Assembly (NCBI GenBank): GCA_009835325.1
Contig: VXWP01000087.1
Coordinates: 21,231-85,230 of the forward strand
Direction: 5' to 3'
Length of the DNA stretch: 64,000 bases
DNA from: Gemmatimonadota bacterium
Lineage (GTDB): Bacteria; JAAXHH01
Shown piece after piece: positions 14,591-39,449 of the stretch. The notes beneath the pieces were generated by a model. That model did no database searches. It was given only the letters and a program-made list of their open reading frames with translations, and was not told the DNA's origin. Both the position numbers and the translations under genes were made by a program. Numbering within the stretch: position 1 is the first letter of the stretch; each line of letters begins with the position of its first letter.

Positions 14591-15348
14591 GCCGAAGCCT
14601 CGTAGTGGAGGATCTGGTTGAGGAAGGCCCGGGTCCGTTCTTCCCTGGGCGCGTCGAAGAAGGCGTCCGGCGCGGCGCTCTCGACGATCTCGCCGTGGTC
14701 CATGAAGACGACCCGGTCGGAAACCTTGCGGGCGAAACCCATTTCGTGGGTCACGCAGACCATGGTGATGCCGCTGTCCGTGAGTTCGAAGATCACGTCG
14801 AGGACCTCACGGATCATTTCCGGGTCGAGCGACGACGTGGGTTCGTCGAAGAGCAGGATATCGGGCCGCATGCACAGCGCCCGGGCGATCGCCACGCGTT
14901 GCTGCTGCCCGCCGGAGAGCTGGTCGGGGTACTTTTCGGCCTGGTCCCCGATGTGCACGCGCTCAAGATAGGACAGGGCGGTTTCTTCCGCCTTCTCCTT
15001 ATCCATCCCGAGATTGCGCATGGGGGCGAGGGCCAGGTTCCGCAGGACGGTCATGTGGGGGAACAGGTTGAAGCTCTGGAACACCATGCCGATCTTCCCG
15101 CGCAGTTCGCGGGGAAGCCGCTCGCCCGGTCCCAGCGGGACGCCGTGGACCCGGACCACGCCCCGGTCGTGGGTTTCCAGCCGGTTGATGCAGCGGATCA
15201 GCGTGGACTTGCCCGAACCGGACGGACCACAGACGACGACGCACTCGCCTTCGCCGATGCTCAGGTCCACGTCCCGGAGCACCTGGAACGTCCCGAACCA
15301 CTTGCTTACGTCTTCAAACGCGATAATGGATGGGGTATCGTCAGACAC
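14587..15348 (-). CDS. amino-acid ABC transporter ATP-binding protein (GlnQ/HisP-like)
   Basis: 253 aa; Walker A GPSGSGKST, signature LSGGQQQRVAIARAL, Walker B ILLFDEPTS. Confidence 0.95.
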   Translation of the reverse strand: MSDDTPSIIAFEDVSKWFGTFQVLRDVDLSIGEGECVVVCGPSGSGKSTLIRCINRLETHDRGVVRVHGVPLGPGERLPRELRGKIGMVFQSFNLFPHMTVLRNLALAPMRNLGMDKEKAEETALSYLERVHIGDQAEKYPDQLSGGQQQRVAIARALCMRPDILLFDEPTSSLDPEMIREVLDVIFELTDSGITMVCVTHEMGFARKVSDRVVFMDHGEIVESAAPDAFFDAPREERTRAFLNQILHYEASA

Positions 15349-18453: not shown

Positions 18454-19653
18454 CTACATGCCTGCTCCCGAGGTGATCAGTTCCATCTTCTTCTTCTGGA
18501 GTTCGTCTCCCTTGGTAAACAACTCCATCTTCCTGGCATCGTCCGTTTCGATACTGGCCAGTCCGACGTAGGTATCGCCGAGTATATCGTGGCCTTCGAT
18601 ACTGTTCGGCTCTAAAGCCAGCAGCTTGTTCATGCTCTCGACAGCGCCATTGAACGCCGCCGAGGCCGCTTCCACGTTTCCGGCATCCCTGTCGGACAGA
18701 CCCTTGTTGTAGTAGTAAGTTCCCAGGTATCGCAGCAGATCCTGGTCCTCCGGGAGGGCGGCGTGTCCCTTTTCCAACGCTTCGATCGCCATACCCAGGT
18801 TATCCCTGGAGGCCTGGATGGAACTGAGGTCGCGGTACAGCACCTTTTCAGCCGGAAACGCTTCGATCGCCCGCTCGTACGTGGTGATCACGCCGGCCGT
18901 GTCGGCGACTTCGGAGTACGCCTGGCGCATGATGAGGTAGGTGTTGAGATCGACCTCTTCCGACAGTTCGATGATCCTGTCGCAGGCCATGATCGCCTTG
19001 TCCCAGGCCTGGGTGTAGTAGTACACGTTGACCAGGCCGTCCCAGGCTTCGAATCTGTCCGGATCCGCTTCGATGAGCGTCTCGAGGGCCATCCTGGAAT
19101 TTTCATAATCTTCCGAGTTCAGGGCGGCGTAACCCCAGTACAGGTACCCCTGCTGCTTGGCGGCTTCCAATTCGTCCGCCTCCCTGGCCTCGTTCTTCTT
19201 GCCGATGGAGCGCAGTATGTCCTGGAGCAACGAGGTCGCGTTGACGGAGCGGTCGTAGAATTGGGCGGCGTCCGCGTACTTCTCTTGTTCATAGCTTTGC
19301 TGGCCCCTCTGGTAGTTCTGACGGATCATGGAGCCCAGGGTGTTCCTGAACTGTTCCTTGTCCTTCTTGTCCAGGTCATTGAAGGTAACCGCTTCCCAGT
19401 TCTGGAACATCAGGTCGAAGTTGCCCTTGCGGTAATGAATGAGCCCGAGGAGATAGTGGGCGTCGTTGTTGCCCGGGTCCTTCTCCAGGGCGGTCTCGAG
19501 CAGCGCCATGGCCTTGTCGGTCTGAGGCGGGATTTCGCGGATGTAGATCTTCGCGGAACGAAGCTCGATTTTCTGCGCGTCTGCGGCGACCGGTATCAAC
19601 AGGGCGAAGCCGAGGGCAAACAATACGCAGACGGCAACCTTTCTTAAAAACAT
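18454..19653 (-). CDS. secreted tetratricopeptide-repeat protein
   Basis: 399 aa; signal peptide MFLRKVAVCVLFALGFALLIPVAADA, repeated TPR-like A..Y..G/A...A patterns. Confidence 0.7.
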   Translation of the reverse strand: MFLRKVAVCVLFALGFALLIPVAADAQKIELRSAKIYIREIPPQTDKAMALLETALEKDPGNNDAHYLLGLIHYRKGNFDLMFQNWEAVTFNDLDKKDKEQFRNTLGSMIRQNYQRGQQSYEQEKYADAAQFYDRSVNATSLLQDILRSIGKKNEAREADELEAAKQQGYLYWGYAALNSEDYENSRMALETLIEADPDRFEAWDGLVNVYYYTQAWDKAIMACDRIIELSEEVDLNTYLIMRQAYSEVADTAGVITTYERAIEAFPAEKVLYRDLSSIQASRDNLGMAIEALEKGHAALPEDQDLLRYLGTYYYNKGLSDRDAGNVEAASAAFNGAVESMNKLLALEPNSIEGHDILGDTYVGLASIETDDARKMELFTKGDELQKKKMELITSGAGM

Positions 19654-19783: not shown

Positions 19784-21130
19784 TCAAGGTGATTCGGGCG
19801 TGTCGCGCCGGTAACTGACCCGGCCGCCGGCGATGGTCATGGTAACGCACCCTTCCAGCGTGCGGCCGGTGAAAGGCGAGTTTACGGATCTTGACCTGAA
19901 GGACGCGGGATCCACGGTCCAGGTTCCGTCCGGATCGAAGAGCAGGAGGTCGGCAGGACCGCCGGCAGCCAGGCTGCCACCTTCTATCCCCAGAATGCCC
20001 GCAGGGGATGCGGACAGGACCTTTACGGCGTCGCCCAGGGATAGCAGGCCGGGCCTGACCAGCTCGGTATACACGACGGCCAGCATGGTTTCGAGACCCG
20101 TTGCGCCGGGCAGCGCTTCCTGGAACTCCGTGTTCTTCTCGTCCACGGACCGCGGCGTGTGATCCGAAGCGACGGCGTCGATCGTTCCGTCCGCCAGGCC
20201 CGCGCAAAGCGCCTCCACGTCGGCTTTGCTGCGCAGGGGCGGATTGGTCTTCAGGTGCGTATCGTAGGTTGAAAGGGATTCGTCGGTCAACACCAGGTGG
20301 TGGGGACTGGCATCGGCGGTTACCCGCACGCCCCGCTGCTTCGCCGACCGGATGAGATCCACCGTCACGGCCGTGCTGGCGTGGGTGACGTGGATCCGTC
20401 CGCCCGTCCACTCGGCCAGCATGAGGTCCCGGGCGGCGACGGTTTCTTCCGCGATGGAGGGTATGCCCTTCAGGCCCAACCGGGTGGCGTGGCTTCCTTC
20501 GTGCATGTGTCCGCCGGCAGAGAGCGACGGGTCTTCGCAGTGCACGAAAATGGGCAGGTCGAACATCCGGCTGTATTCGAGGGCCCGGCGCAGGATGGCC
20601 GGATTCCGGATGGACCGGCCGGCATCGGACAGCGCCACGGCACCGGCCTCGGCCAGTTCGCCGGCCTCGGTCAGACGTTCGCCCCGGCGTCCCGCGGTGA
20701 CTGCGGCGATGGGGTGGATCTTCGCCGCCGCGCCGGTCGCCCTTTCCCGTACAAATTCCACCGTGGGCGCGTCGTCGATGACCGGGTCGGTGTCCGGCAT
20801 GCACGCCACGGCGGTGACACCGCCCGCGGCGGCGGCGAGTGCGCCACTCTCCAGGGTCTCCCTGTACTCGAATCCGGGTTCGCAGAGATGGGCGTGCAGA
20901 TCGACCAGGCCCGGCAGGACGAACAGACCGGCCGCATCGATGACCGCGGCGCCTTTCGCCTCGTCGTCCGTCGGCCGGTCGACAATTCTGCCGTCGCGCA
21001 TCCAGAGATCTCCTTGCTCGTCGCGACCGGAAGCGGGGTCGACGATGTGTCCGTTGCGGACCACCGCAAGCCCGGCGACTCCAGTTGCGCCGCCGATAGT
21101 ATCCGGTCCGTCAGGCCGCATCGCGCTCAC
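19784..21130 (-). CDS. pyrC: dihydroorotase
   Basis: 448 aa; VDLHAHLCEPGFEYRETLESGALAAAAGGVTAV, amidohydrolase fold; follows pyrB with a 20-nt overlap. Confidence 0.9.
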   Translation of the reverse strand: MSAMRPDGPDTIGGATGVAGLAVVRNGHIVDPASGRDEQGDLWMRDGRIVDRPTDDEAKGAAVIDAAGLFVLPGLVDLHAHLCEPGFEYRETLESGALAAAAGGVTAVACMPDTDPVIDDAPTVEFVRERATGAAAKIHPIAAVTAGRRGERLTEAGELAEAGAVALSDAGRSIRNPAILRRALEYSRMFDLPIFVHCEDPSLSAGGHMHEGSHATRLGLKGIPSIAEETVAARDLMLAEWTGGRIHVTHASTAVTVDLIRSAKQRGVRVTADASPHHLVLTDESLSTYDTHLKTNPPLRSKADVEALCAGLADGTIDAVASDHTPRSVDEKNTEFQEALPGATGLETMLAVVYTELVRPGLLSLGDAVKVLSASPAGILGIEGGSLAAGGPADLLLFDPDGTWTVDPASFRSRSVNSPFTGRTLEGCVTMTIAGGRVSYRRDTPESP

Positions 21131-22067
21131 CTCCGCCGTTGAGGAGATAGAGGACCGCCATGCGCACCGCGACGCCGTTGGTCACCTGGTCCAGAATGAC
21201 CGATCTCCCGCTGTCCGCCACGCGGCTGTCGAGTTCCACGCCGCGGTTGATGGGGCCGGGGTGCATGACGATGGCTTCGGGTTTGGCGAGTTCCAGCCGT
21301 TCGGGGTCGATGCCGAACAGGCGCGTGTACTCGCGCTGGGACGGGAAGAAGGCTTCCTGTTGCCGTTCGAGCTGTATCCGCAGGGCGTAGATTACGTCGG
21401 CGTCGCGGAGGGCGTCGCCGATCCGGTAGCTGACCTCCACGCCCATCTCCTCGATGTCGACGGGAATCAGCGTGGGCGGCCCGCATACGACCACGTCGGC
21501 GCCCATTTTCCGGAGTCCCCAGATATTGGAGCGCGCCACCCGGCTGTGGGCGATATCGCCGATAAGCGCCACCTTCAGGCCCTCCAGCCGGCCCAGGGCG
21601 TCCCGCATGGTCAGGAGGTCCAGCAACCCCTGCGTGGGATGTTCGTGGGCGCCGTCGCCCGCGTTGATGACGACCGCGCTCGACAGGCACTGCGAGAGGA
21701 AGAGGGGCGCGCCGGCGGCGGCATGGCGCACCACCACGCAGTCCACCTGCATGGCTTCGATGTTCCGCGCCGTGTCGCTCAGGGATTCTCCCTTGGACAC
21801 GCTGCTGCCGGTGGACGCGAAGTTCAGGGTGTCTGCGGAGAGTTGCTTCTCGGCGAGTTCGAAGGAAAGCCGCGTGCGGGTGCTCGATTCGAAGAAGAGG
21901 TTTACGACGTTCTTCCCGCGGAGGGCGGGGACCTTGCGGATGGGCCGCCGGATCACTTCCTTGAAGGAGTCCGCCGTATCCAGGATCAGTCCGATCTCCT
22001 CGCGGGCGTAGTCCTCGAGGCCGATCAGGTGTCGGTGGCGCAGCGTTCGGAGCCGGTTCTTCGCCAT
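21111..22067 (-). CDS. pyrB: aspartate carbamoyltransferase catalytic subunit
   Basis: 318 aa; FFESSTRTRLSFELA and HPTQGLLD motifs. Confidence 0.95.
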   Translation of the reverse strand: MAKNRLRTLRHRHLIGLEDYAREEIGLILDTADSFKEVIRRPIRKVPALRGKNVVNLFFESSTRTRLSFELAEKQLSADTLNFASTGSSVSKGESLSDTARNIEAMQVDCVVVRHAAAGAPLFLSQCLSSAVVINAGDGAHEHPTQGLLDLLTMRDALGRLEGLKVALIGDIAHSRVARSNIWGLRKMGADVVVCGPPTLIPVDIEEMGVEVSYRIGDALRDADVIYALRIQLERQQEAFFPSQREYTRLFGIDPERLELAKPEAIVMHPGPINRGVELDSRVADSGRSVILDQVTNGVAVRMAVLYLLNGGGERDAA

Positions 22068-22600
22068 CAGGCCACCTCCTCCACCGCGACGTTGTCGTCC
22101 CGGTCCAGCTCATGGACGTGGACGACGACGGTCCGGCCGGGGCCCACTTCGATGGTCTCCCCGATGTAATCCGCCTGGATGGGCAGTTCCCTTCCCTCCC
22201 GGTCGATCAGGACGGCGAGTTCGATCCGCCTTGCCCGGCCGAAATCCTTAAGCTCGTCCAGCGCCGCGCGGATCGTACGGCCCGTGTACAGGACGTCGTC
22301 CACCAGGATGACGGTGCGCCCCTCGATGTCGAAGGGGATGTCGGTCGTGCGGACGACGGGGTAGTCCGCGCGGACCTGGAGGTCGTCGCGGTACAGATTG
22401 ATGTCCAGCACGCCCACGGGTACGGCCGTGTCTTCCGCCTCCCGTATGGCCTCGGCCAGCCGCCGCGCCAGCCAGTCGCCCCGCCGCTGGATACCCACGA
22501 TGGCGATGCCGGAAGCGCCCTGGTTGCGTTCCAGGATCTGGCGGGCGATACGGGACAGCGCCCGGGCGATGCCTTCCCTGTCGAGGACCTGCTCGCTCAT
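22067..22600 (-). CDS. pyrR: bifunctional pyr regulator/uracil phosphoribosyltransferase PyrR
   Basis: 177 aa from MSEQVLDREGIARALSRIARQILE...; PRPP loop VILVDDVLYTGRTIRAAL. Track ORF 22067..22978 has a spurious N-terminal extension. Confidence 0.9.
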   Translation of the reverse strand: MSEQVLDREGIARALSRIARQILERNQGASGIAIVGIQRRGDWLARRLAEAIREAEDTAVPVGVLDINLYRDDLQVRADYPVVRTTDIPFDIEGRTVILVDDVLYTGRTIRAALDELKDFGRARRIELAVLIDREGRELPIQADYIGETIEVGPGRTVVVHVHELDRDDNVAVEEVA

Positions 22601-23547
22601 CCGGCCGCCCTTCCCTCCGCCGAGTCCGGCGCTGTTTCGGCCGCCCCCTCGCGCGGAGCGTCCGCCGCGTCCTGTGCCGTTCCGGCCGCTCCCTCGCGCG
22701 CGGCACTCGGCGTCCCGTCGCCCGTCGCGCCCGCCGCCGACCAGGCCGCCTTCAGCGTCTCCAGGCTCTTCCGGGCGATGTGCTCCGCGCCGTATGAATA
22801 GTCGAACACCTCCACCGAACCGTATCCGTCGTAGCCGGTTTCCCGGAGCGCTCGCAGTATGGGGACGAAATCGGTATCTCCGAACCCAGGTCCGTTGCCG
22901 CTGGCGTCGTTGAAATGGATGTACGCAGTGATATCCCGGTGTTCGTGGATGGCCGCCGCGACGTCCAGCCCCTGGCACAGGGTCGCCCGGACGTCGATGA
23001 TCAGGCGGAAATTGGGATGGTCGATCTCACGGACCATCCGCGCGGCTTCGGCCGGAGTGTTGATGAAGTTGGTCTGGGCGGCGTCCAGGGGCTCGAGGCA
23101 GATAGTGACCCCGTATTCCTCCGCCGTGGGCAGGCACTCCAGGTACGCCTGGCGGGTCCGGTCCCAGGTCGCCTCGTAGGTCTGCTCCGGCAGCACGTTG
23201 CGTTGCTTCGGCGAACCGGCCACCATGACCCGTCCGCCGATGTCGCCGCAGAACCGGATCAGGTCGCAGAGGTACAAGCGGGTGCAGTACCGGATACCGT
23301 CGTCGGGGTGGTTGAGGTAGAGGCCTTCCGGGCTGAGGAGGAGCCAGTGCAGCCCGGTGATTTCGAGGCCGTATTCCGCCGCGTCGTCGCGTATCGCCTT
23401 CCGGGCGTCCTGACCGACCTCGTTCACCGACCGCGCCACCGTGAAGGGCGCGATCTCCACGCCGTCATATCCGATCTCAGCGGCGGTGCTGAAGATCCGC
23501 CGGAGGGGAACGTCCCGGAACATCTCGTTGCAGAAGGCGAACTTCAT
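22597..23547 (-). CDS. sugar phosphate isomerase/epimerase (xylose-isomerase-like TIM barrel) with repetitive Ala-rich tail
   Basis: MKFAFCNEMFRDVPLRRIFSTAAEIGYDGVEIAPF...; start overlaps the stop of the upstream 1542-aa gene (ATGA); tail overlaps the pyrR start. Confidence 0.75.
   Translation of the reverse strand: MKFAFCNEMFRDVPLRRIFSTAAEIGYDGVEIAPFTVARSVNEVGQDARKAIRDDAAEYGLEITGLHWLLLSPEGLYLNHPDDGIRYCTRLYLCDLIRFCGDIGGRVMVAGSPKQRNVLPEQTYEATWDRTRQAYLECLPTAEEYGVTICLEPLDAAQTNFINTPAEAARMVREIDHPNFRLIIDVRATLCQGLDVAAAIHEHRDITAYIHFNDASGNGPGFGDTDFVPILRALRETGYDGYGSVEVFDYSYGAEHIARKSLETLKAAWSAAGATGDGTPSAAREGAAGTAQDAADAPREGAAETAPDSAEGRAAG
22634..22703. repeat. about 45-bp-period in-frame duplication forming the TIM-barrel protein tail
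   Basis: gtttcggccgccccctcgcgcgg versus gttccggccgctccctcgcgcgcgg; protein REGAAGTAQDAADAP / REGAAETAPDSAEG. Confidence 0.7.
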
Positions 23548-26500
23548 ACGGGTTGTCCCGCCTCTTCCATCCTTTCCGTCATTTCCCGGCCGGTCGCGGC
23601 GTATTGGTTCTTGAGATCCTGCGGGAGGGTGCGCCAGACCAGGAAGCGCTTGCGCAGCACGCTCAGGAAGCGCCGGTTGATGCGCTGCCAGGACGCCACG
23701 TCGCCGCTCTCGCGGTGGATGTCCACCCATACGGCGTAGAGATCTCTTTCATTCTCCGCCGGCGCGGCGCTGAGCGAGACCTTCTGGCTGATGCCCAGGT
23801 CGTAGGGGGCGAGCCAGGTCATCATCGAGATATGGTACATGGGCTGGTCCGTCGCGCCTTCCACGGCCGTCAGCTGGACGTTCTCCGTGACGAAGGCGCC
23901 CAGGGAACCCTCCTCGTAGGATTCGAAGACCCGCGTGAGATAGGCGTACATGCCCAGCACCTCGACGCTGCCGATGGTGAAGGGGAAATCGAAGCTCCAG
24001 TCGTCCCCGTCGGGCTCGGGGAACTTCCACTCCCGGCCCACGTCGGGCACGGCCATGTCCGCCGCCTTCTTGGCCGGGTAGGCCGTCGACAGGAACACCG
24101 TGGCCATGACCACGACCACAGACCAGACAGCCGACAGGGAGGAATAGTTCAGCGACAGGCCGGCGAGGATGTCGTAATTCGACAGCACGAGGGTGATGGT
24201 CTGTCCCCCCAGGTAGCCCAGCACGGCGCCCACCGTGGCGAATACGGAGGACTCGGCCAGGAACAGCGCCGCGATGTGGCTCGGCGCCAGGCCGACCGAA
24301 CTGTAGACGCCGATTTCCCGGAAGCGCTCGTGGACCGCGCCCATCATCGTGTTCAGCACGATCATGGCGGCGACGAGGATGGGAATGAGGAAGTTGCCGA
24401 GACCCCCGATGGAGGTGGAACCGATGGAACTGTAGACGTTGACCGTGCCGTCCTTCCCCACGAACATGGTCATGGCGACCCTGGACAGGAAGTCCTCGAT
24501 ATCGCGGTCGAAGTCGGGGTTCGGCTGTCCGCTTTCGTCCACGAAGTCCGTGATGGCGACCGAATACATCTTCCCGTCGAGGTCCATGACCGTCTCGTAC
24601 GGCAGGATCATGACGTTGTTGGACTCGAGATGGATGAAGGCCTCCGGCGGCGACTCGGCCTGCAGCCGCGGGTCCTCGCCGATGCGCTGGGCGATCTTGC
24701 CCTTTTCCTGGACCAGGTCGACCGGCGTGAGCTTCTCGTCGTCCAGGTCCTTGAGCTGGTTGAACCTCCTGGAATCGATCACACCGACGACCTGCAGCTT
24801 CATGCCGAACATGTCGATGTAGGCGGAACCGGCGTCTTCGGGTCTGATGCCCACCACCGCGGCCACGTCGTCGGGAAGGATGGCCGCGTCCCGTTCACCG
24901 GGCTCGAACCACCTGCCGCCGAGGAGGTATTCGTCGAGGCGGGTCGCCCTGGGCTCGTCCGGCGTCAAGCCCAGAATACTGTTCACGTAGCTTTCGTGGG
25001 ACGACCGGGGCGAGGAGAAGGAGAAGAATCCCTTTTCGCCCTTGACCTGGGACATGTACCAGGCCCGCGGAATCAGCGTGGCCTTATCCTCGAAGGTGCT
25101 CTTGAGATAGTCGTAGACGGAGGGCTGCAGCCCTTTCCAGTTACGGTCCCGGACCAGCGTCCCCTCGTAGGCCGGTTCGTTGTACCGCTCCAGCTTGTAG
25201 TACCTTAAGGACGTGGTGATGGAAGTAAAGGACAGCACGGTGAAGGTCAGCAGCGTGATGGTCGCCGCCGTGAGGGCCGTGCGGATCTTCCGCTTGCGCA
25301 GGTTGGATACCCCCAGCGACAGGGCGACGGCCGTGGCGCTCAACCGGCCGATGTCGGCCTCGTGCATGCCGGTCTGCGCCCGCTTGATCTTCTGGACTTC
25401 CTGGTTGAACTTGGACAGGACGATGATGAGCACGGTCGTCCCCAGCGCGAAGATGACGAAGGCCAGGAAGATCACGTAGGGCGAGGTGCTGAGCTTGAAG
25501 GCGGGATGCACCTGCTGCAGCACGAGGAAGACCGCGATGAAGAAGGCGGCGAAACCGAAGATCCGCTTGTTGATCGTCGGAAACCCGAAGACCAGGCGCT
25601 CCATGAAGAAGGAAAAGGGGATGAGCAATATGAAATAGAAGATCACGCCCTTGACCGTGTCGTCCGCCGTGGACTTGACCTCCGGATAGCCTCGGGCTTC
25701 GAGCCCCCAGGCTTCCCGAGACTTGGAAATGAAAGCGTCGTATTCCCGGTTTGCCAGGTGCTCCTCCGCCTCGAGGAGCGTGACGCGCGCCTGTTCGTGC
25801 AGCTGCTCGATGCGCTGGTTCTCCACGCCGAAGCGCGCGAGTTGCTTGAGCCTCACGTCATCCACGACCCACATGTCCCGTGTGCCCTGGTAGGACGGAT
25901 TCACGATGAGGCCCATATCGACCGGGTAGCCCTGGCCCTGGGCCTCTTCCAGCAGTTCCAGGGTCACCTCGTTCGGCTCGACGGGGTCCTTCAGGAAGGT
26001 ATCCGGCGCATTGGTCAGCAGGTATTTGACGCCGAAGAGACTGGTGCTCATGAGCAGTTTGACGTGCTGGCCCGGCTTGGCGAAGACGACGGCCGCGGGC
26101 ACGGTTCGGCCCTCCGATCCGCTTTGCTTTTCTATGTAACTGTGGCCGTACCACTGGGGTTCGGCATCGTTCTGCGCCAGGACGGTCAGCTGGTCCAGCG
26201 CCGTGAGGTAACGGGAGTCGATGATCTCGTACACGTCGAGGGCCTGGGCCCGGAACACGATCTGCAGGGTGGTATTCTCATTCGCGCCGCTCGCGGCGTC
26301 CAGCGGGAAGGTCTTGTCGCCCTCCTGGCCCAGGTCGGGCGCGTAGATGATCTCGCCGTCCTCGTCCAGCGCGTACGTCCGCAACTTGATCGGCCCCTTC
26401 TGCTGTTTCAGCGGACGGAATTCGAAGCGTCCCAGGGAATCGGCCTTGGTGATGAGGATGCCGCGCACGCCTGTATTGGTCAGCCCCTTGTAATAGGTGA

Positions 26501-28172
26501 CCAGCGCGCCGGGGATGGGCTTCTTGGGCACGAAGAAATTGACGTCCCGGTCGAACTCGTAGACCGTGCCCGACAAGTCGTGTGCCGTGTCCTGGATCTT
26601 GAGCTTGGTCTCTTCGAAGAGCTCGCCGTCGGTGGTGGCCCGGGCGAGCATGACCGCGAGCGACCGCGCCTGCTCGGTGACATTGGCGATGTTGACCGAT
26701 TCGAAGCGGTCGTTGGGCGTGTCCACCAGGCCCCGCGTCCCGTTCGGCGTGACGAAGGACATGCCCTTCTTGCCCATGTAGGTGACGGCCTCGCTGTCCA
26801 GCCCGATCTTGACGGGCATGAAGTCCTTCCAGGTCCGCTGCGGCGGCACGATGGCGTTGACATACCGGGCCGAATCGGCGCCGGCGCCGAAGGCTTCCTG
26901 GATATAGCTTGCGAATTTCCGCGAATAGGGGGCGAAGATGTTTTTGATGTAGTGGTTGGTCGCCCAGGCGGCGTTGTCGAAGGTGCCGAAGGCGAAGCTG
27001 CCGACGCGGGACTCGTGGCTGGAGAGGTCGATGCCGAAGAACATGTCGAAATCGATCTTTTCCGCCTCGGGGATCCTCGACATGAAGTAACCACTCGCCC
27101 GGCCGTGCCGGTACAGCCAGTTGTGCGCGCCTTCCAGGCCGATGAAGTGGGCGGAAGTGGCCAGGATGACCACGGAGTACTTCGGGTTATAGCGCTTGAC
27201 CGCCTGGGCGACCTCGAGCAGCGCGGCGACGCCCGTGGCGCTTTCGGCACCGGGCGCGACGCCCGGGACTACCGACATGGCGTCGTAGAAGGACGAAATG
27301 ACGATCGTGTAGTCTTTCCACTTCGTGCGGGTCTCGTCCCTGGCGTTCGGCATTTCCTCGTCGAGGCCGGGTATCCACCCGAAGATGTTCTTCCCTTCCA
27401 CCACCTCCCAGTCCATGCGGGCCTGGACGTTCACCTGGTTCGTACCCGGTTCGGCCAGGGCCATCAGGCCGGGCGCGTGCGCCTTATCGACCCAGTAACG
27501 GGGCACATTGAGCGGAAGCCCCATGAATTTGAGTTCCGCCTCACTCCGGGTCACCCGCCCGTTGTCGAAGAAGATAACCGCGCTGGCGCCGAGCATCCGT
27601 GCATTGATGAAACGGTCCTGGGAGTCGAAGTCCATGAGCACGACACTGCCCTGCATCTCGTACCCGTTGAAGTCGGCGAATTCCCCCTTGCCGCCGTAGA
27701 CGATCGGACCGGAAATACCCTCGCCGGGCGTGGTGGGCGTGCGCACGTGGTTGGGCCAGAGGGCATGGAGGGGAATCTCCTCGCCCGTCTCCATCACCGT
27801 CAGTTTCGATCCCTTGTCGATGGGTACCGTGACCGGGAACGTCTCGGTCCGGATGTCCTGCAGGCCGATCTCTTCGAACTGATCCCGTACGTACGCGTAG
27901 GCCGAATCGGCGCCGGCGTAGCCCACCACCCGGGAAGGATGGGAGGACAGGGTACGCACCGTGTTTTCGATCGACTCCGCGCTGACCGACTCCAGGGCTT
28001 CCTCGAGGTCGCGGTCGTGGCCCAGGAAAGGCTGAACCTCCTGAGGTTCCGGCAGCGAGATCAGCTTCATCAGGATATTTTCGGTAATATCCTCGGGATG
28101 GAAGATGGTGACCGAGGACAGCATCAGCACCGCGATGGTGATGCCTATGCCCGTTTTTATCTTCGACCACAT
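23544..28172 (-). CDS. 1542-aa fusion: N-terminal anchor, M28/PA (GCPII/transferrin-receptor-like) ectodomain, MacB/FtsX-type permease module, unknown C-terminal domain
   Basis: PA-like insert GPIVYGGKGEFADFNGYEMQGSVVLMDF...GASAVIFFDNG. M28-like core ISSFYDAMSVVPGVAPGAESATGVAALLEVAQ...ILATSAHFIGLEGA. MacB-type TM1 LRKRKIRTALTAATITLLTFTVLSF. FtsX motif MGAVHERFREIGVYSSVGLAPSHIAALFLAES. Confidence 0.8.
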   Translation of the reverse strand: MWSKIKTGIGITIAVLMLSSVTIFHPEDITENILMKLISLPEPQEVQPFLGHDRDLEEALESVSAESIENTVRTLSSHPSRVVGYAGADSAYAYVRDQFEEIGLQDIRTETFPVTVPIDKGSKLTVMETGEEIPLHALWPNHVRTPTTPGEGISGPIVYGGKGEFADFNGYEMQGSVVLMDFDSQDRFINARMLGASAVIFFDNGRVTRSEAELKFMGLPLNVPRYWVDKAHAPGLMALAEPGTNQVNVQARMDWEVVEGKNIFGWIPGLDEEMPNARDETRTKWKDYTIVISSFYDAMSVVPGVAPGAESATGVAALLEVAQAVKRYNPKYSVVILATSAHFIGLEGAHNWLYRHGRASGYFMSRIPEAEKIDFDMFFGIDLSSHESRVGSFAFGTFDNAAWATNHYIKNIFAPYSRKFASYIQEAFGAGADSARYVNAIVPPQRTWKDFMPVKIGLDSEAVTYMGKKGMSFVTPNGTRGLVDTPNDRFESVNIANVTEQARSLAVMLARATTDGELFEETKLKIQDTAHDLSGTVYEFDRDVNFFVPKKPIPGALVTYYKGLTNTGVRGILITKADSLGRFEFRPLKQQKGPIKLRTYALDEDGEIIYAPDLGQEGDKTFPLDAASGANENTTLQIVFRAQALDVYEIIDSRYLTALDQLTVLAQNDAEPQWYGHSYIEKQSGSEGRTVPAAVVFAKPGQHVKLLMSTSLFGVKYLLTNAPDTFLKDPVEPNEVTLELLEEAQGQGYPVDMGLIVNPSYQGTRDMWVVDDVRLKQLARFGVENQRIEQLHEQARVTLLEAEEHLANREYDAFISKSREAWGLEARGYPEVKSTADDTVKGVIFYFILLIPFSFFMERLVFGFPTINKRIFGFAAFFIAVFLVLQQVHPAFKLSTSPYVIFLAFVIFALGTTVLIIVLSKFNQEVQKIKRAQTGMHEADIGRLSATAVALSLGVSNLRKRKIRTALTAATITLLTFTVLSFTSITTSLRYYKLERYNEPAYEGTLVRDRNWKGLQPSVYDYLKSTFEDKATLIPRAWYMSQVKGEKGFFSFSSPRSSHESYVNSILGLTPDEPRATRLDEYLLGGRWFEPGERDAAILPDDVAAVVGIRPEDAGSAYIDMFGMKLQVVGVIDSRRFNQLKDLDDEKLTPVDLVQEKGKIAQRIGEDPRLQAESPPEAFIHLESNNVMILPYETVMDLDGKMYSVAITDFVDESGQPNPDFDRDIEDFLSRVAMTMFVGKDGTVNVYSSIGSTSIGGLGNFLIPILVAAMIVLNTMMGAVHERFREIGVYSSVGLAPSHIAALFLAESSVFATVGAVLGYLGGQTITLVLSNYDILAGLSLNYSSLSAVWSVVVVMATVFLSTAYPAKKAADMAVPDVGREWKFPEPDGDDWSFDFPFTIGSVEVLGMYAYLTRVFESYEEGSLGAFVTENVQLTAVEGATDQPMYHISMMTWLAPYDLGISQKVSLSAAPAENERDLYAVWVDIHRESGDVASWQRINRRFLSVLRKRFLVWRTLPQDLKNQYAATGREMTERMEEAGQPV

Positions 28173-28588
28173 GTGCGTTTATCCCTGATTTGCGGCCGCG
28201 CAGTCCTGCCGCGCCGCAGTTCTTCCGCCCCTGCCGCAGTCCGAACGCGGAATGCGGTCCGAATGCGGAAGCGGTGGTTTCGTACGTGGAAGCCGCGCAG
28301 AACCGCGGCCTCCGCGTCAGTCATTGCCGGGGAACATGGGTATGCCCGGGACTGCCGAGAGGCCCTTCCAGTCGCATTCATCCCGAGCGTAGTGAGTTGT
28401 CGCATACTTGAACAAAGCAATATAAAAAAGATGATACGACGGTTCAAGCAAAAACCTGACGGCTCCCTGACGGCCCCAGGGTCGCGCGCTTGGGACGCAA
28501 TACGCGTGCACGAACCGGTCCGCGACCCTGCATGGTTACAGGATGGTAACACGACAGTTAAAACTAGGGTTGTGCCACCCGACGGAGA

Positions 28589-28627
28589 CCGGATATATTG
28601 ATTGGCGTACAGTATCCGGATCTTTTT
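28589..28627 (+). terminator. intrinsic-terminator-like hairpin in the leader of the 28669 membrane-protein gene
   Basis: CCGGATA (28589-95), 17-nt loop, TATCCGG (28613-19), then ATCTTTTT; no upstream plus-strand gene to terminate. Confidence 0.45.
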
Positions 28628-28668
28628 CCCCCTCTAAAACCTGTTTTCCTGTTTCGGCGCACCGAATC

Positions 28669-30657
28669 ATGACATCCCTTACGCGAATCGGTATACCGCG
28701 GCCCGGCATATTGCGATCGGCCGGCATATCCCGCCGCGCCGTCGTCCTGGGGCTGGCCCTCGCCGTCCTGATCAACATCTGGGTGCCCTTCGGCTCTTTC
28801 ATCCTGCAGTCCTCCCGCATGACGGTAGGGCACCTGCCGATCTCGGTCCTCATACCGTTCTTCTTCCTGCTCTTCATCGTCAACCCCGCCCTGCGCACGT
28901 GGCGGCCGACCTGGGTGCTGACCGGAAACGAACTGGCCCTGGTCTTCGTGATGATGTTCGTTTCCTCCCTCGTGCCGGGCAAGGTACTGGTCGCCTATCT
29001 CATGGGGGTCATCGCGACGCCGTACTATTTCGCGCGCCCCGAGAACCAGTGGGCGGTCACCTTTTTCCAGTACCTGCCCGACTGGCTGCTCGTAAGCGGC
29101 CAGGGCAATACGCTGGTGTGGTTCTACGAAGGGATCCCGGAGGGGGCCGGCGACGTCATCTGGGGACCCTGGCTGCCGCCCCTCTTCTGGTGGCTGACCT
29201 TCTTCGTTATGCTCTTCTTTATGGGCGCCTGCATGTCCACCATCATGCGGAGGACGTGGGTGGCCCACGAAAGACTGTCCTTTCCGCTCGTCCGGATGGC
29301 CGTCGACCTGATCCGCCACGACGACCGGACGGAACGGACGTTCCCCGGTTTCGTGTACGACCGCATGTTCCAGGTGGGCTTCGGCGTCACGCTGGCCCTC
29401 ATGATCTGGAACATCTCCGCGTTCTGGGGCGCTATTTCGCCCATACCCATCGGGGCGCTCTACCACACTAACCTTAACTTCCTGGAGGGCTTCACTGCCA
29501 TCCGGGTCAGCGTCAACATATATGCCCTGTGCTTCGCCTTCCTGGCACCGCTCGAGATTACCTTCAGCCTGTGGTTCTTCGCCCTGTGCGGCGTATTGGA
29601 AGGCGGCCTGCTCGACCGCGTCGGACTCCAGTATTCCGGCAGCCCGGTGGGCGTGAACGCCGTGGTGAAGGCCCAGTTCTTCGGCGGGTTCATCGTATTC
29701 GTCATCTGGCACCTGTGGACGGCCCGCGAGCAGATCGCCGACGTTTTCCGGCGAGCCATGCGCAGCGGTGAGCAAGCGCCCACGGAGCTAATGTCCTACC
29801 GCGTGGCCGTGCTCGGACTGGCGGGCAGCGTGGTGTACCTGGTGGCCTGGCTGGTGGGATCGGGCCTTTCGTGGCATGTGGTGCCCATATATCTGTTCTT
29901 CCTCTTCGTCCTGTACCTGGGCACGGCGCGGATCATCGCCCAGACGGGCCTGGCGTTTCTGGACCTGCCGGTCAATGCCCACCATTTCACCATCCTGACT
30001 ATGGGATCGGGGAACATCGACCCCCAGAGCCTGACCACCCTCGGCCTGGGATCCGCCTACGCCCGGAACTGGCGGGGCATGGGCATCGGCACCATCGCCC
30101 AGTCCGACAAGGTGATGTCCGATCTGCAGCAGGACAAGCGGGGGATCCTCGCCCTCATGATCGCCACCTTCGTCATCAGCCTGCTGACGTCCGTCCTGTA
30201 TACGGTCTACATCGGCAATACGACCGTCGGCGCGTACAACTTCGGCGAGCGTGACGCCTTCGGCGGCAAAATCAACGAGTCGTACTACGACGACATCGTA
30301 CGGTGGATACGGAATGCTGACCAGCTGCAGCCGCCCGAGTTCCTCTTTATGGCCCTCGGCGGCGTCGCCATGCTCGTCATGACGGCCCTGTCCTACCGGT
30401 TTCCCGGCTGGCCTCTCGCACCGGTGGGGTTCACCGTGGCCTTCGCCGACGTGACCCGGCTCCTCATGTTCTCGCTGTTCCTGGCCTGGCTGATCAAGAT
30501 GCTTCTACTGCGGATCGGCGGGGTGACGTTCTACCGCCGGGCCCAGCCCTTTGCCTGGGGCGTGCTCGTGGGGTACACTACGGGGGTTTTTCTCGGGTTC
30601 GTCGTGGACTGGATCTGGTTCCCGGGGCAGGGGCACTCTCTGCATGAATGGACATAG
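28669..30657 (+). CDS. polytopic membrane protein of unknown function (many TM helices)
   Basis: ORF 28543..30657; start moved to MTSLTRIGIPRPGILRSAGISRRAVVLGLALAVLINIW. Hydrophobic throughout. Reminiscent, from memory only, of the Pfam DUF6785/DUF6784 membrane proteins. Confidence 0.7.
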   Translation: MTSLTRIGIPRPGILRSAGISRRAVVLGLALAVLINIWVPFGSFILQSSRMTVGHLPISVLIPFFFLLFIVNPALRTWRPTWVLTGNELALVFVMMFVSSLVPGKVLVAYLMGVIATPYYFARPENQWAVTFFQYLPDWLLVSGQGNTLVWFYEGIPEGAGDVIWGPWLPPLFWWLTFFVMLFFMGACMSTIMRRTWVAHERLSFPLVRMAVDLIRHDDRTERTFPGFVYDRMFQVGFGVTLALMIWNISAFWGAISPIPIGALYHTNLNFLEGFTAIRVSVNIYALCFAFLAPLEITFSLWFFALCGVLEGGLLDRVGLQYSGSPVGVNAVVKAQFFGGFIVFVIWHLWTAREQIADVFRRAMRSGEQAPTELMSYRVAVLGLAGSVVYLVAWLVGSGLSWHVVPIYLFFLFVLYLGTARIIAQTGLAFLDLPVNAHHFTILTMGSGNIDPQSLTTLGLGSAYARNWRGMGIGTIAQSDKVMSDLQQDKRGILALMIATFVISLLTSVLYTVYIGNTTVGAYNFGERDAFGGKINESYYDDIVRWIRNADQLQPPEFLFMALGGVAMLVMTALSYRFPGWPLAPVGFTVAFADVTRLLMFSLFLAWLIKMLLLRIGGVTFYRRAQPFAWGVLVGYTTGVFLGFVVDWIWFPGQGHSLHEWT

Positions 30658-30729: not shown

Positions 30730-31641
30730 TTACCGGTGTATATACAATGGCTCCACGTCCCGCAGGAGCCGGTCGATCTCGGCGAGGTCGTGCCGGTCCA
30801 GCCTCCCCGGCGCCCGCGTGTAGGTCGACGCGATCAGTCCCCGCCGTTTCAGGATCTCCTTGCAGAAGATCACGCCTTGCAGGCTTTCGATATTAATGAG
30901 CGGTAATAGCCGGGTGTGGATCTCCCGCGCACCTTCCACGTCGCCGGACCGGTAGAGCTCGTAGAGGCGGACCAGCACGTCGGTGAACTCGCAGGCCGGC
31001 ATGGTGCCGCTCGCGCCGCGGTTCAGCTCGTCGATGAACCAGCGTCCGCCGAACCCGGTGAAGACGCCGTGCAGCTCGTCCCCGCAGGTCTCCAGCAGCG
31101 CCGTTACCGAATGGCCCGGAGGCATCATCTCTTCCTTGATGTATTTCACGTGCGGAATGTCCAGCAGCAATTCACGGATGACGGCCGGTGGGAGGCTGGA
31201 ACCCAGCGGCGGATCGAAGTTCTGGATGAAGACGGGTTTCCCCATGGCTTCCGCGACCCGGCGGTAGTAGTCGACCAGGCCGTCGAGTCCGGGCTTGAGC
31301 ACGTAGGGCGGCAGGGCGATGGCGCCGTCGGCGCCGGCCTCCCGCGCATGGCGGCTGAACATCACGGCGACCTCGGTACTCACCCCGGCCACGCCCGCGA
31401 TCATGGGGATGCGCCCGTCCACCTGCTCCACGGCCACGTCCACGACCCGTTTCCGCTCGTCGTCCGAGAGCAGCCAGAACTCGCTCACCATGACGGGATA
31501 GACGATACCGTGGGTGCCGGTATCCACGCAGAAATCGATCTGCCTCCGCAGTCCCTCCTCGTCCAGCGCGCCGTCGTCGGTAAAGGGCGTTTGCGGTATG
31601 GTGAATATGCCGTGCCAGCCCTGCCTGCCGTCGCTTTTCAT
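30730..31641 (-). CDS. dihydrodipicolinate synthase/N-acetylneuraminate lyase family aldolase
   Basis: 303 aa; GIFTIPQTPFTDDGALDEEGLRRQIDFCVDTGTHGIVYPV...IPMIAGVAG. Confidence 0.8.
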   Translation of the reverse strand: MKSDGRQGWHGIFTIPQTPFTDDGALDEEGLRRQIDFCVDTGTHGIVYPVMVSEFWLLSDDERKRVVDVAVEQVDGRIPMIAGVAGVSTEVAVMFSRHAREAGADGAIALPPYVLKPGLDGLVDYYRRVAEAMGKPVFIQNFDPPLGSSLPPAVIRELLLDIPHVKYIKEEMMPPGHSVTALLETCGDELHGVFTGFGGRWFIDELNRGASGTMPACEFTDVLVRLYELYRSGDVEGAREIHTRLLPLINIESLQGVIFCKEILKRRGLIASTYTRAPGRLDRHDLAEIDRLLRDVEPLYIHR

Positions 31642-31921
31642 GCCAACCTCCCTTGATCGGAACTAAGGTTTAATCCGTGATTGTGCGGCGCTTCCGGGGG
31701 CAGCCCAGGCACCACTCCGGCGGTATCCCGGGCACCGCTCCAGGGGCAGCCCGGACGCGCTTCCCGAAGGAGTCCGGACGCCTTTGCGGAAGGGGTCCGG
31801 GACGCGCCCGTAAACCAATATAATGATTGACAGAAGGGGTGCCACGCCCCTATTTTGTGTCGTTGTTTTTGAATGGATAAAAGGCGTGCAGCCGACGTGC
31901 AGAATACCCCGGGGAAGCTTG

Positions 31922-34594
31922 ATGACAACGGACGTGGAACCCGATGTAGCATCGCTGGAACTTCACGAATGGCTCGAATCGATTGAGTACGTCATATCGC
32001 AGGGCGACCCGGAGCGGACCCGCCGCATCCTCGCGGCGCTGGAGTCCCGGGCCGCCGAGTCCGGTGTACGCCTGCCCTTCTCCGCCAACACGCCCTACGT
32101 CAACACCTTTCCCGTCGAACTGCAGGAACCCTATCCCGGCGACCGCGACCTGGAACGGCGCATCAAGAACATCGTGCGCTGGAACGCGCTCGCCATGGTG
32201 GTCCGGGCCAACCGGGCCGACGCCTCCATAGGCGGGCACATCTCCACCTACGCGTCGTCCGCGACGCTCTACGAGGTGGGGTTCAACCACTTCTTCCGCA
32301 ACCGGAACGGAAGCCACGAGGGCGACCTCCTCTTCGTCCAGGGCCACGCCGCGCCCGGCATCTACGCGCGGGCCTATCTCGAAGGCCGTATCTCCGAAGA
32401 GCAGCTCAAACACTTCCGCCACGAGGTGAATTCGCCCGGGCTGTCGTCCTACCCCCATCCCTGGCTGATGCCGGATTTCTGGGAATTCCCCACGGTGTCC
32501 ATGGGCCTCGGCGCCATCACCGGTATCTACCAGGCCCGTTTCATGAAATACCTGGAGAACCGGGGGATCAAGAAGCCGAGCGATTCCAAGGTGTGGGTCA
32601 TGATGGGCGACGGGGAGATGGACGAGCCCGAGTCCCTCGGCGCTATCACCGTGCCGGTCGTCGAAAACCTCGACAACCTCATCTTCGTAATCAACTGCAA
32701 CCTGCAGCGGCTCGACGGCCCCGTCCGGGGCAATCACAAGATCATCCAGGAACTCGAGGCCATCTTCCGAGGCGCGGGATGGAACGTCATCAAGTGCATC
32801 TGGGGCAGCGACTGGGACCCCCTCCTGGAAAAGGACGGCGACGGACTCCTCGTGAACCGCATGCACGAGACGGTGGACGGCCAGTACCAGAAGTACAGCA
32901 TGGCGTCCGGCGAATACATCCGGAACAAGTTCTTCGGCGTCCATCCGGATTTGAAGAAGATGGTGGAACACCTGTCCGATTCACAGCTGCAGCACCTGCG
33001 GCGGGGCGGCCACGATCCGCTCAAGGTCTACCACGCCTACAAGGCCGCCGTGGAGAACGAGGGTTCGCCGACGGTCATCCTGATGAAGACGATCAAGGGA
33101 TACGGACTGGGCGACAGCGGGCAGGGCGCCAACAGCACCCACCAGATCAAGAAGATGGAGGACAGCGACCTGCTGGCCTTCCGGGACCGGTTCCGGATAC
33201 CGATTTCCGACGAGGACGTAGCCGAAGTGCCTTTCTACAAGCCGCCCGAGGACAGCGAGGAGATCCAGTATCTGCACGAGCGGCGCAGGGCCCTCGGCGG
33301 CTACGTGCCCTCCCGGCGGACGACCTTCACGCCGCTGCACGCGCCGAAGCAGGACAAGTACCGCAAGTACTACGAGGGGACGGACCGTCAGGTGTCGACG
33401 ACCATGGCCTTCGTCAATATCCTGTCGGACCTGATGCGCGACAAGGAAATCGGCAACCTGATCGTGCCCATCGTACCCGACGAGGCCCGGACCTTCGGCA
33501 TGGAGGCCCTGTTCCGGCAGTCCGGCATCTACTCCCCGGTGGGGCAGCTCTACGACCCGGTGGACAGCGAAACGCTCCTCTATTACCGCGAATCGAAAGA
33601 CGGCCAGCTGCTGGAAGAGGGCATTTCGGAAGCGGGCGCCATGTCGTCCTTCATCGCCGCCGGTACGGCCTACGCCACCTACGACATCAATACCATCCCT
33701 TTCTTCATCTACTATTCCATGTTCGGCCTGCAGCGCGTCGGCGACCTGGTCTGGTCCGCGGGCGACATGAAATGCAAGGGCTTCCTGGTGGGCGCCACGT
33801 CGGGGCGGACCACGCTGGCGGGCGAAGGACTCCAGCACCAGGACGGTAACAGCCACCTGCTGGCTTACCCCGTGCCGAACCTGCTGGCCTACGACCCGGC
33901 CTACGGCTACGAACTGGCGGTGATCATCGAAGAAGGCATCCGGCGCATGTACGAGGAGCAGGAGGACGTGTTCTACTACCTGACCGTGCACAACGAGAAC
34001 TACGCCATGCCGCCCATGCCCGGCGACCCCGAGGCGACCCGGGAGGGCATCCTCAAGGGGATGTACCTGTTCCGCAAGTCGGAGAAAAAAGACGGCGACC
34101 TGCGCGTCCAGCTCTTCGGAAGCGGCGCCATCCTGAACGAGGTGCTCAAGGCGGGACGGATCCTGGAGGAACAGTACGGCGTGGCCGCGGACGTCTGGAG
34201 CATCACCAGCTACAAGGCGCTGCACAACGAAGCGGTGGACGTGGAGCGGTGGAACATCATGCATCCCGAGGAAACGCCGCGCGTACCCTACGTGACTTCC
34301 TGTGTGGCCGACGTCCCGGGGCCCTACGTGGCGGCCTGCGACTACGTGAAAGCGCTGCCGGACACGGTATCCGCCTGGTTCCCGGGCCACCTGATCACGC
34401 TCGGGGCCGATGGATTCGGACGCAGCGACAGCCGCGCCGCCCTGCGGGATTTTTTCGAAGTGGACGCCCGCTATATCGCGCTGTCCGCGCTCTACGGCCT
34501 GATGCGCGACGGCAAACTGCCGGCTTCCACGCTGAAGCAGGCGATGGCCGACCTGGAGATCGACGCCGACAAGCCGAATCCGCTCATGCTGTGA
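31922..34594 (+). CDS. aceE: pyruvate dehydrogenase E1 component (homodimeric type)
   Basis: Start at MTTDVEPDVASLELHEWLESIEYV; RWNALAMVVRAN...GGHISTYASSATLYEVGFNHFF and GDGEMDEPESLGA ThDP motif. Confidence 0.95.
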   Translation: MTTDVEPDVASLELHEWLESIEYVISQGDPERTRRILAALESRAAESGVRLPFSANTPYVNTFPVELQEPYPGDRDLERRIKNIVRWNALAMVVRANRADASIGGHISTYASSATLYEVGFNHFFRNRNGSHEGDLLFVQGHAAPGIYARAYLEGRISEEQLKHFRHEVNSPGLSSYPHPWLMPDFWEFPTVSMGLGAITGIYQARFMKYLENRGIKKPSDSKVWVMMGDGEMDEPESLGAITVPVVENLDNLIFVINCNLQRLDGPVRGNHKIIQELEAIFRGAGWNVIKCIWGSDWDPLLEKDGDGLLVNRMHETVDGQYQKYSMASGEYIRNKFFGVHPDLKKMVEHLSDSQLQHLRRGGHDPLKVYHAYKAAVENEGSPTVILMKTIKGYGLGDSGQGANSTHQIKKMEDSDLLAFRDRFRIPISDEDVAEVPFYKPPEDSEEIQYLHERRRALGGYVPSRRTTFTPLHAPKQDKYRKYYEGTDRQVSTTMAFVNILSDLMRDKEIGNLIVPIVPDEARTFGMEALFRQSGIYSPVGQLYDPVDSETLLYYRESKDGQLLEEGISEAGAMSSFIAAGTAYATYDINTIPFFIYYSMFGLQRVGDLVWSAGDMKCKGFLVGATSGRTTLAGEGLQHQDGNSHLLAYPVPNLLAYDPAYGYELAVIIEEGIRRMYEEQEDVFYYLTVHNENYAMPPMPGDPEATREGILKGMYLFRKSEKKDGDLRVQLFGSGAILNEVLKAGRILEEQYGVAADVWSITSYKALHNEAVDVERWNIMHPEETPRVPYVTSCVADVPGPYVAACDYVKALPDTVSAWFPGHLITLGADGFGRSDSRAALRDFFEVDARYIALSALYGLMRDGKLPASTLKQAMADLEIDADKPNPLML

Positions 34595-39390: not shown

Positions 39391-39398
39391 ACAATCAA

Positions 39399-39436: not shown

Positions 39437-39449
39437 GGTCAATATAAAA

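Follow-up and report, generated by a model that had tools for sequence, protein, structure and literature searches.

The type VII ATP-binding cassette (ABC) permeases such as MacB, LolCE, FtsX and YtrF contain a four-helix module in which a large periplasmic domain separates transmembrane helices (TM) 1 and 2, and are understood to pass the movements of an ATPase to the periplasm. They share the Pfam FtsX domain, the PAKKAA motif and the ER..EIG loop, the last of which forms the major coupling helix docking the ATPase in MacB-type systems. A 64-kb window of a Gemmatimonadota bacterium (64,000 nucleotides of contig VXWP01000087.1, numbered here from the first nucleotide) contains a gene, named FUS in this study, whose predicted product carries all these features. 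It differs from the type VII permeases in lacking an ATPase, whether fused or adjacent, in having four additional TM helices, an N-terminal ectodomain of ~800 aa and a family-specific cytoplasmic domain of 170 aa after TM4, and in having as its conserved partner a predicted secondary-transporter fold, not an ATPase, a membrane fusion protein (MFP) or an outer-membrane factor (OMF). The “Acidobacterial duplicated orphan permease” (ADOP, TIGR03434) is also of the FtsX type and annotated without an adjacent ATPase, and it matches FUS partially (E 2e-4, 19.5 bits against a cut-off of 622 bits); unlike FUS, it consists of duplicated MacB_PCD and FtsX domains and has no M28 ectodomain, no such C-terminal domain and no OPT partner. 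We propose, at a rough probability of 0.5, that FUS serves as an accessory subunit, both receptor and coupler, to an OPT-type importer that is presumably proton-driven and is encoded by the adjacent DUF6785/DUF6784 gene.

FUS and this adjacent gene are arranged as given below.

23544..28172, minus strand: FUS, whole gene, 1542 aa (open reading frame (ORF) list and translation)
28173..28668, no strand: divergent intergenic region between FUS and the partner, ~500 bp (sequence read)
28669..30657, plus strand: partner, a polytopic membrane protein of 662 aa with DUF6785 and DUF6784 (Pfam, 2e-103 and 6e-17)

The longest ORF of the partner starts at 28543 and its homologues favour the start at 28669. 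The intergenic region presumably serves the regulation of both genes, and nothing was found in it by the Rfam scan of the window. A 131-aa ORF with a GTG start (28157-28552, minus strand) overlaps the start of FUS; similar ORFs occur in two close relatives only and it is probably not a gene.

The partner was modelled with AlphaFold2 (AF2) from 69 homologues, and the model had a pLDDT of 91.8 and a pTM of 0.92. A Foldseek search with this model returned barley Yellow Stripe 1 (HvYS1; 7wsr and 7wst) with an E value of 1e-8, a probability of 1.0 and a TM-score of 0.65–0.71; these were the only significant matches, the next one having an E value of 0.07 and a TM-score of 0.13. By its predicted structure, DUF6785/DUF6784 is thus an OPT/Yellow-Stripe-fold permease. 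It resembles the OPT/YSL proteins (TC 2.A.67) in the fold of the whole chain, in its size of ~650 aa, in being polytopic and in the frequent presence of peptidase neighbours. It differs from them in being filed as DUF6785/DUF6784, with no significant sequence similarity to Pfam OPT (PF03169; no match at E up to 10), and in being paired or fused with a giant FtsX-type protein, for which no report was found among OPT proteins. No mention of DUF6785 or DUF6784 was found in the literature searched.

To follow the linkage, ORFs from 87 FUS loci were clustered and all six frames were scanned with HMMs for OPT-like genes. Only two neighbour families were widely conserved across these loci, DUF6785 and C2. 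The C2 family consists of polytopic membrane proteins of ~665 aa encoded in one locus at L001:14686-16701 and in 52 other loci, none of them in the window. C2 is distantly paralogous to DUF6785 (hhalign 94%, E 1e-7), and one of 20 members matches Pfam OPT (2.7e-5) with essentially no other significant Pfam match, so that from profile comparison C2 looks like an unannotated OPT-like family. Neither DUF6785 nor C2 matched the PDB by sequence or by profile. An OPT-like gene was found within 10 kb of FUS, usually as its direct neighbour, in 72 of the 74 loci (97%) having at least 2.5 kb of flanking sequence, and two such genes in 39, in counts that include related genomes and hence loci that are not phylogenetically independent. 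The median gap between FUS and the nearest partner was ~180 nt and both genes were on the same strand in 70/82 cases. A DUF6785 gene was likewise beside or near FUS in all five distant homologues looked up. In the 92% identical relative L004, two transposase genes (Transposase_mut and DDE_Tnp_1) and genes for DUF488 and DuOB have been inserted between FUS and DUF6785 (L004:5208-9353).

The two proteins were also found in single chains. Four fusions of 2120 aa (P0388, P0398, P0400 and P0401, from ENA, JGI and Logan, on contigs of up to 123 kb) and a further one of 2083 aa (NCBI MEE2729158.1) carry the M28-like domain, middle region, FtsX, C-terminal domain and DUF6785 in that order, the cytoplasmic tail of FUS being joined to the N-terminus of the permease. 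A second fusion cluster, comprising P0404 (1680 aa, on a 259-kb contig) and P0353, has the same C-terminal junction, and P0394 is likewise among the FUS-permease fusions. Such fusion of FUS with DUF6785, seen in at least two lineages, is a classic mark of proteins acting together in a complex. Because DUF6785 genes also occur without FUS, as in Fimbriimonadales and Poribacteria where no FUS was found nearby, FUS looks like an accessory of the permease rather than the reverse. The first-pass annotation of the window, made from its sequence alone, had correctly described the upstream neighbour as divergent and set it aside; since this neighbour is a conserved partner with a predicted OPT fold, sometimes fused to FUS, the picture changes from that of a MacB permease lacking its ATPase to that of an accessory subunit of a secondary transporter.

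FUS had been taken for an orphan, which is contradicted by 387 matches in a word-indexed search and by at least 594 loci confirmed in GTDB species representatives, many of them on complete chromosomes, in a pattern scan covering one genome per species. The 120 homologues listed from the word-indexed search were nearly all full-length (~1480–1740 aa), 45–95% identical to FUS, and came from metagenome-assembled genomes (MAGs) of Latescibacterota, Gemmatimonadota, Zixibacteria and Planctomycetota; the closest among the matches listed (98%) are sequences labelled as Gemmatimonadetes MAGs. The surveyed loci were mainly in Latescibacterota and Gemmatimonadota, and several genomes carried 2–3 paralogous sets of FUS and OPT-like genes. 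FUS therefore belongs to a large, old and unstudied family, whose members are named in databases as “FtsX-like permease family protein”, “M28 family peptidase” or “DUF6785 family protein”. No description of an M28-FtsX or OPT-FtsX pairing was found in the literature searched, and to that extent the earlier view of an undescribed architecture holds. A chimera of two genes produced by assembly or gene calling, which had been raised as a concern, was rejected since 80 loci from independent assemblies, complete chromosomes among them, and the 120 homologues listed have this architecture without a break, and conservation is continuous across every domain junction; the chance that FUS is such an artefact is next to nil.

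The ORF list, Pfam and hydropathy agreed with the 1542-aa ORF and the domain order first read from the sequence, that is an N-terminal anchor, an M28/PA-like ectodomain, a middle region, three TM helices, a MacB/FtsX-type module and a cytoplasmic domain. The parts of FUS, all on the minus strand, are as follows.

28104..28160, minus strand: N-terminal hydrophobic anchor, residues 5-23 (hydropathy 1.78 over 19 residues)
26673..27995, minus strand: PA-interrupted M28-like ectodomain, residues ~60-500 (Pfam, phmmer and profile matches to PDB, column composition in 121 + 90 members)
27552-27713, minus strand: Pfam PA, residues 154-207 (23.7 bits, cut-off 23.9)
26853-27314, minus strand: Pfam Peptidase_M28 (PF04389), residues 287-440 (E 3e-10, 40.6 bits, cut-off 21.3)
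25647..26660, minus strand: extracytoplasmic middle region, residues 505-842 (columns conserved family-wide)
25413..25646, minus strand: three extra TM helices, residues ~843-920 (hydropathy and invariant columns)
24060..25412, minus strand: MacB/FtsX-type module, residues 921-1371 (Pfam FtsX, partial NCBIfam and PDB matches)
23547..24059, minus strand: cytoplasmic C-terminal domain, residues 1372-1542 (family-specific; AF2 model)

Domain searches thus recovered homology to M28 as given above and to FtsX at residues 1263-1372 (E 1.7e-14), and the two strings quoted when the module was first noticed were located in the translation, LRKRKIRTALTAATITLLTFTVL at 958-980 and HERFREIGVYSSVGLAPSHIAALFLAES at 1281-1308. 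In the hydropathy profile, the N-terminal anchor is followed by an extracytoplasmic stretch of ~815 aa and by the three helices at ~843-920, and then by TM1 (964-985), a loop of ~270 aa, TM2-4 (1257-1365) and a tail of ~175 aa. As the loop 921-962 is basic and contains nine K/R residues, the sequence fits an inner-membrane protein of eight TM helices with N-in/C-in topology. Two large parts of FUS would accordingly be periplasmic by hydropathy, one comprising the M28/PA-like domain and the middle region, and the other a putative MacB-type domain. The middle region (505-842) looks beta-rich and then helical on reading of the sequence alone, and gave no Pfam match at E up to 10 and no PDB match even by profile. 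The extra TM helices contain the invariant residues E858-R859 and H889-P890-A891-F892.

When the family profile was compared with the PDB, the ectodomain matched 2ek8 (6e-13), YwaD (6e-8), Nicalin (5e-6), the aminopeptidase AAP (6e-6) and the transferrin receptor (TfR, 1e-4). The closest solved relatives by sequence are therefore bacterial PA-containing M28 aminopeptidases, followed by Nicalin. With these aminopeptidases (2ek8 of Aneurinibacillus, YwaD of B. subtilis and, distantly, GCPII) FUS appears to share the insertion of a PA domain into M28; Pfam PA falls just short of its cut-off in FUS itself and passes it in many FUS homologues, and the profile alignment runs through the PA domain of 2ek8. 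The ectodomain of FUS differs from them in being membrane-tethered and fused to a permease. Alignment of the ectodomain by phmmer and by the family profile to the PDB, including the AAP structures 2anp/1amp and 2ek8, gave the following correspondence.

AAP His97 (ligand): F295 in FUS, formal alignment
AAP Asp99 (second shell): D297, formal alignment
AAP Asp117 (bridging ligand): S311, with E310 directly before it, formal alignment
AAP Glu151 (general base): H342, formal alignment
AAP Glu152 (ligand): F343, formal alignment
AAP Asp179 (ligand): D382, by motif position only and outside the printed alignments
AAP His256 (ligand): D484, RVDTPxD against WYHTPND

FUS therefore has M28 homology and lacks the five-ligand set and the general-base Glu, and in these alignments the canonical di-zinc ligands and the general base of M28 are absent from it. 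The loss of metal and catalytic positions read by eye in the first-pass annotation agrees with the formal alignments to 2ek8 and AAP, which show no intact zinc ligand set: the His of the HRD motif is lost (F295) and the Glu-Glu pair has become His-Phe (H342, F343). The bridging Asp is also lost as claimed, the residue aligned with it being S311, with E310 adjacent. As against the M28 aminopeptidases, the co-catalytic ligands and base are hence replaced (F/Y/H295, E310/S311, H342, F343 and D484), and D382 appears to be retained by motif position only.

The replacement residues are strongly conserved. Among 121 aligned homologues, D297, S300, H342, D382 and D484 are each present in 121/121, Y296 in 120, F343 in 119 and E310 in 118, and position 295 alone is variable (F in 43, Y in 43 and H in 33). 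The pattern [Y/F/H]-Y-D ... E/D ... H ... D ... D is maintained in 90 divergent cluster representatives, with H342 in all 88 that cover the site (two of the 90 rows have gaps there), and the substituted residues remain invariant or nearly so down to ~40% identity. No family member, among either the 121 homologues or the 90 representatives, retains the canonical M28 ligand set. Because the replacement residues are near-invariant across the family, the M28-like site is, judging from these alignments, a remodelled and conserved pocket under selection and not a decayed one. The site as aligned is “inactive” in the classical sense, from which “functionless” does not follow. Like FUS, Nicalin (of the BOS complex of the endoplasmic reticulum) and TfR are membrane-anchored and have an M28-like ectodomain without the canonical active site, and the Nicalin match (5e-6) extends over the YDA..V.P....GA...G...LLE.AR block of FUS. 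FUS differs from both in being bacterial, in having a different partner and in the near-invariance of its substituted positions, which suggests a specific site. The comparison with the inactive TfR made initially stands as regards the loss of the canonical site and fails as regards the rest, since the substituted residues are near-invariant and the TfR match is limited to the PA region of the ectodomain.

The FtsX-type module matched solved structures of YtrF (1e-6), MacB (5e-6 and 7e-5), LolF, LolC, Spr0695 and FtsX, and YtrF, MacB, LolF and LolC were aligned over 341-452 of the module, including the ER..EIG motif. Over the FtsX helices, the NCBIfam models of MacB, ADOP, FtsX and LolC/E matched in part only and scored far below threshold. 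MacB_PCD was absent from the Pfam result for FUS and recorded in 17 of the 120 homologues listed, as well as in the long member P0257. The segment before TM1 is basic and amphipathic, and the periplasmic domain of the module is ~270 aa long. The loop between TM2 and TM3 has the motif E1282-R1283-x-x-E1286-I1287-G, which is invariant in the FUS family, and the PAKKAA motif at the C-terminal end of FtsX permeases is kept.

The C-terminal domain follows TM4, at the place where the ATPase would dock. It had been noted as an unrecognised domain of ~170 aa, in line with which its 171 residues have no sequence relative in Pfam or the PDB. The AF2 model (pLDDT 88.8) has a beta-alpha-beta4-alpha-alpha order with five strands, and the canonical helix-grip fold has seven. 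Foldseek matches of this model were weak (E ~1e-3, TM-score 0.25–0.42, rmsd 6–17 Å), and the top 50 were nearly all START/Bet v 1/SRPBCC proteins. The domain was considered as a degenerate ATPase and this was rejected, there being no sequence match, a small alpha+beta model and START-like matches only; as modelled, it is not a nucleotide-binding domain. According to an exhaustive phmmer search, the domain is present in 1394 clusters (50% identity). It was C-terminal or nearly so in the 150 matches listed, with the exception of P0388 and P0353, in which it is followed by DUF6785, and of P0308, which has a tail of ~205 aa after it. In all six hosts scanned with Pfam (605–2930 aa), the FtsX domain lies directly before it, and an M28-like N-terminus is also present in every one of the 93 hosts among the listed matches that have 1300 aa or more. 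Some longer members, namely P0242 (2930 aa), P0244 (3053 aa) and P0257 (2451 aa), carry additional modules at the N-terminus (Big_5 Ig-like, LysM and NMB0315-like domain I) ahead of the core of M28-like domain, FtsX and C-terminal domain.

Annotation of the window agreed with the first-pass annotation that FUS has no partner ATPase next to it: no ABC ATPase is adjacent to FUS in the window and none is fused to it. The only ABC ATPases of the window (14587-15348 and 3-272, both on the minus strand) were assigned to other systems. The first has a counterpart in L004 that adjoins BPD_transp_1 importer permeases (tblastn match). The second, cut by the edge of the window, lies directly downstream of a 793-aa permease with duplicated MacB_PCD and FtsX (313-2694, minus strand), the two forming a canonical type VII pair 21 kb from FUS; a LuxR-type response regulator (2964-3617) and a histidine kinase with a PDZ domain (3614-6277) are encoded upstream of this pair, also on the minus strand. 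Across the 87 loci fetched, a LolD/MacB-type ATPase was found in the operon at five distinct loci, or six with the duplicate L002 (L001/L002, L017, L073, L078 and L081). A dedicated ATPase is thus not a conserved part of the FUS system. The small FtsX protein of these operons has 214–228 aa with a short periplasmic loop only, and the ATPase has the DEPTGNLD motif. Coordinates of the operon variants are L078:16384-17795, L017:7999-11110 and L001:16752-19583, and in L078 a GAF-GGDEF gene comes next.

In the accessory-subunit model, the M28/PA-like pocket (D297, E310, H342, D382 and D484) would capture a periplasmic, peptide-like substrate. The four-helix FtsX/MacB module with its periplasmic domain would act as a conformational coupler (mechanotransmission) linking the periplasmic receptor, the OPT-like permease and the cytoplasmic domain, and this coupling would gate the permease or deliver substrate to it instead of driving ATP-dependent pumping. 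Prokaryotic OPT genes often adjoin peptidase genes, and the OPT proteins have been predicted to import peptides (PMC3061005). More specifically, we suggest as a tentative idea, with the odds somewhat against it, that a mechanotransmission fold serves without ATP hydrolysis as the inbuilt coupler of an OPT-type transporter driven by protons. This would define a hitherto unrecognised class of secondary uptake systems with two components or at times a single chain, in which a giant M28-pocket receptor in the periplasm selects the cargo and a START-like domain replaces the ATPase, maybe gating uptake by sensing a cytoplasmic ligand. Several points weigh against the accessory-subunit model. The invariant ER..EIG loop could still allow an ATPase to bind in trans, and one clade, that of the ATPase-bearing loci, has an operon of FUS, C2, an optional protein of no assigned family (~300 aa), an optional PqqD-like protein, the small FtsX and the LolD-like ATPase. 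The peptide cargo is a guess from family resemblance, and so only a probable one; OPT/YSL proteins also transport metal chelates, glutathione and folate. The START/Bet v 1 resemblance of the modelled C-terminal domain is weak (TM-score 0.3–0.4) and tentative, and the handover of substrate from FUS to the permease and the mechanism of coupling are inferred.

Three other explanations were considered for the same observations. The near-invariance of the substituted residues is what would be expected of a catalytic or metal site, and the M28-like domain could on this ground be a non-canonical hydrolase that trims peptides for import of the products by the OPT-like permease, using for example one metal bound by E310, H342, D382 and D484, or Ser300/His342/Asp. 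The frequent peptidase neighbours of prokaryotic OPT genes and the His at the first ligand position in ~27% of members fit such cleavage; the replacement in kind of four of the five canonical ligands and of the general-base Glu, and the absence of the canonical set from every family member, count against it. To our knowledge no M28 enzyme uses this residue set, and we consider the cleavage explanation doubtful. The conserved ER..EIG loop and PAKKAA motif, together with the five operons just described, would also suit a classical type VII ABC system in which FUS, as a dimer or with the small FtsX, is served by a LolD/MacB-type ATPase encoded elsewhere that powers expulsion, extraction or processing of a periplasmic substrate, the OPT-like gene being a mere metabolic neighbour. 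NCBIfam TIGR03434 (ADOP) exemplifies the established annotation class of orphan FtsX permeases. At most loci, however, no MacB-type ATPase occurs within 10 kb, no MFP or OMF genes are conserved nearby, and the canonical MacB-type permease of the same window keeps its ATPase adjacent. The conserved 170-aa domain occupies the ATPase-docking place after TM4, and the FUS-OPT fusions are hard to square with a metabolic neighbourhood alone, which makes the ABC explanation improbable.

An analogy can also be drawn with FtsEX, whose partner EnvC is an inactive LytM protein, FUS combining an FtsX module with a degenerate metallopeptidase. FUS would then be an envelope regulator in which the EnvC-like degenerate peptidase controls a cell-wall hydrolase and the OPT-like permease recycles muropeptides, for which FtsX among the PDB matches and the LysM domain of one long member (P0257) could be cited. 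The 2–3 paralogous FUS/OPT sets in one genome do not resemble a division function, the conserved neighbours include no amidase, divisome or peptidoglycan genes, and no FtsE-like ATPase is present; such a role is very improbable. If the accessory-subunit model is true, the mechanotransmission fold would have a second mode of use that does without a dedicated ATPase, and there is a substantial chance that FUS represents such a new use. The partner model gives a first fold-based assignment, to OPT/Yellow-Stripe, for Pfam DUF6785/DUF6784 and for the unannotated family related to it. In Latescibacterota, Gemmatimonadota and their relatives, abundant organisms of soil, sediment and sponges that are mostly uncultured, the findings point to a major uptake system whose cargo may be peptides. 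The ectodomain can be placed next to Nicalin and TfR as a bacterial M28 domain whose non-canonical site is conserved, and for cryo-EM the natural fusion of ~2100 aa in one chain is an obvious target.

On the other side of FUS, the window has the gene given below.

22597..23547, minus strand: xylose-isomerase-like TIM-barrel gene (Pfam AP_endonuc_2, 3.6e-41)

Its start overlaps the stop of FUS by ATGA (GTATGAAG), so that the downstream TIM-barrel gene and the overlap reported earlier are both present in the sequence. The same arrangement is seen in L004 and the gene is outside the conserved neighbour clusters; it is kept in close relatives only and is probably not a part of the FUS system. Other neighbours were considered as parts of the system and rejected, as they are lineage-specific with no common theme (peptidyl-prolyl isomerase, proteins with a type IX secretion tag, metallophosphoesterase, DUF255 thioredoxin, amidohydrolase and TPR proteins). 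Beyond the TIM-barrel gene lies a pyrimidine cluster (19784-22978, minus strand), in which a PyrR/UPRTase-like phosphoribosyltransferase, aspartate carbamoyltransferase (21111-22067) and a dihydroorotase-like amidohydrolase (19784-21130) are encoded, and it is followed by a TPR protein (18454-19653). The Rfam scan of the window found only the bacterial large signal recognition particle RNA (161.7 bits, 56519-56786, minus strand) and tRNAs, the latter in two clusters of three and four genes (39307-39610 and 56871-57784, both minus strand). Genes for a PcRGLX-like/GH127-like protein of 903 aa (6550-9261, minus strand), a DHDPS-family lyase (30730-31641, minus strand) and a pyruvate dehydrogenase E1 component (31823-34594, plus strand) flank the region and are syntenic in close relatives only.

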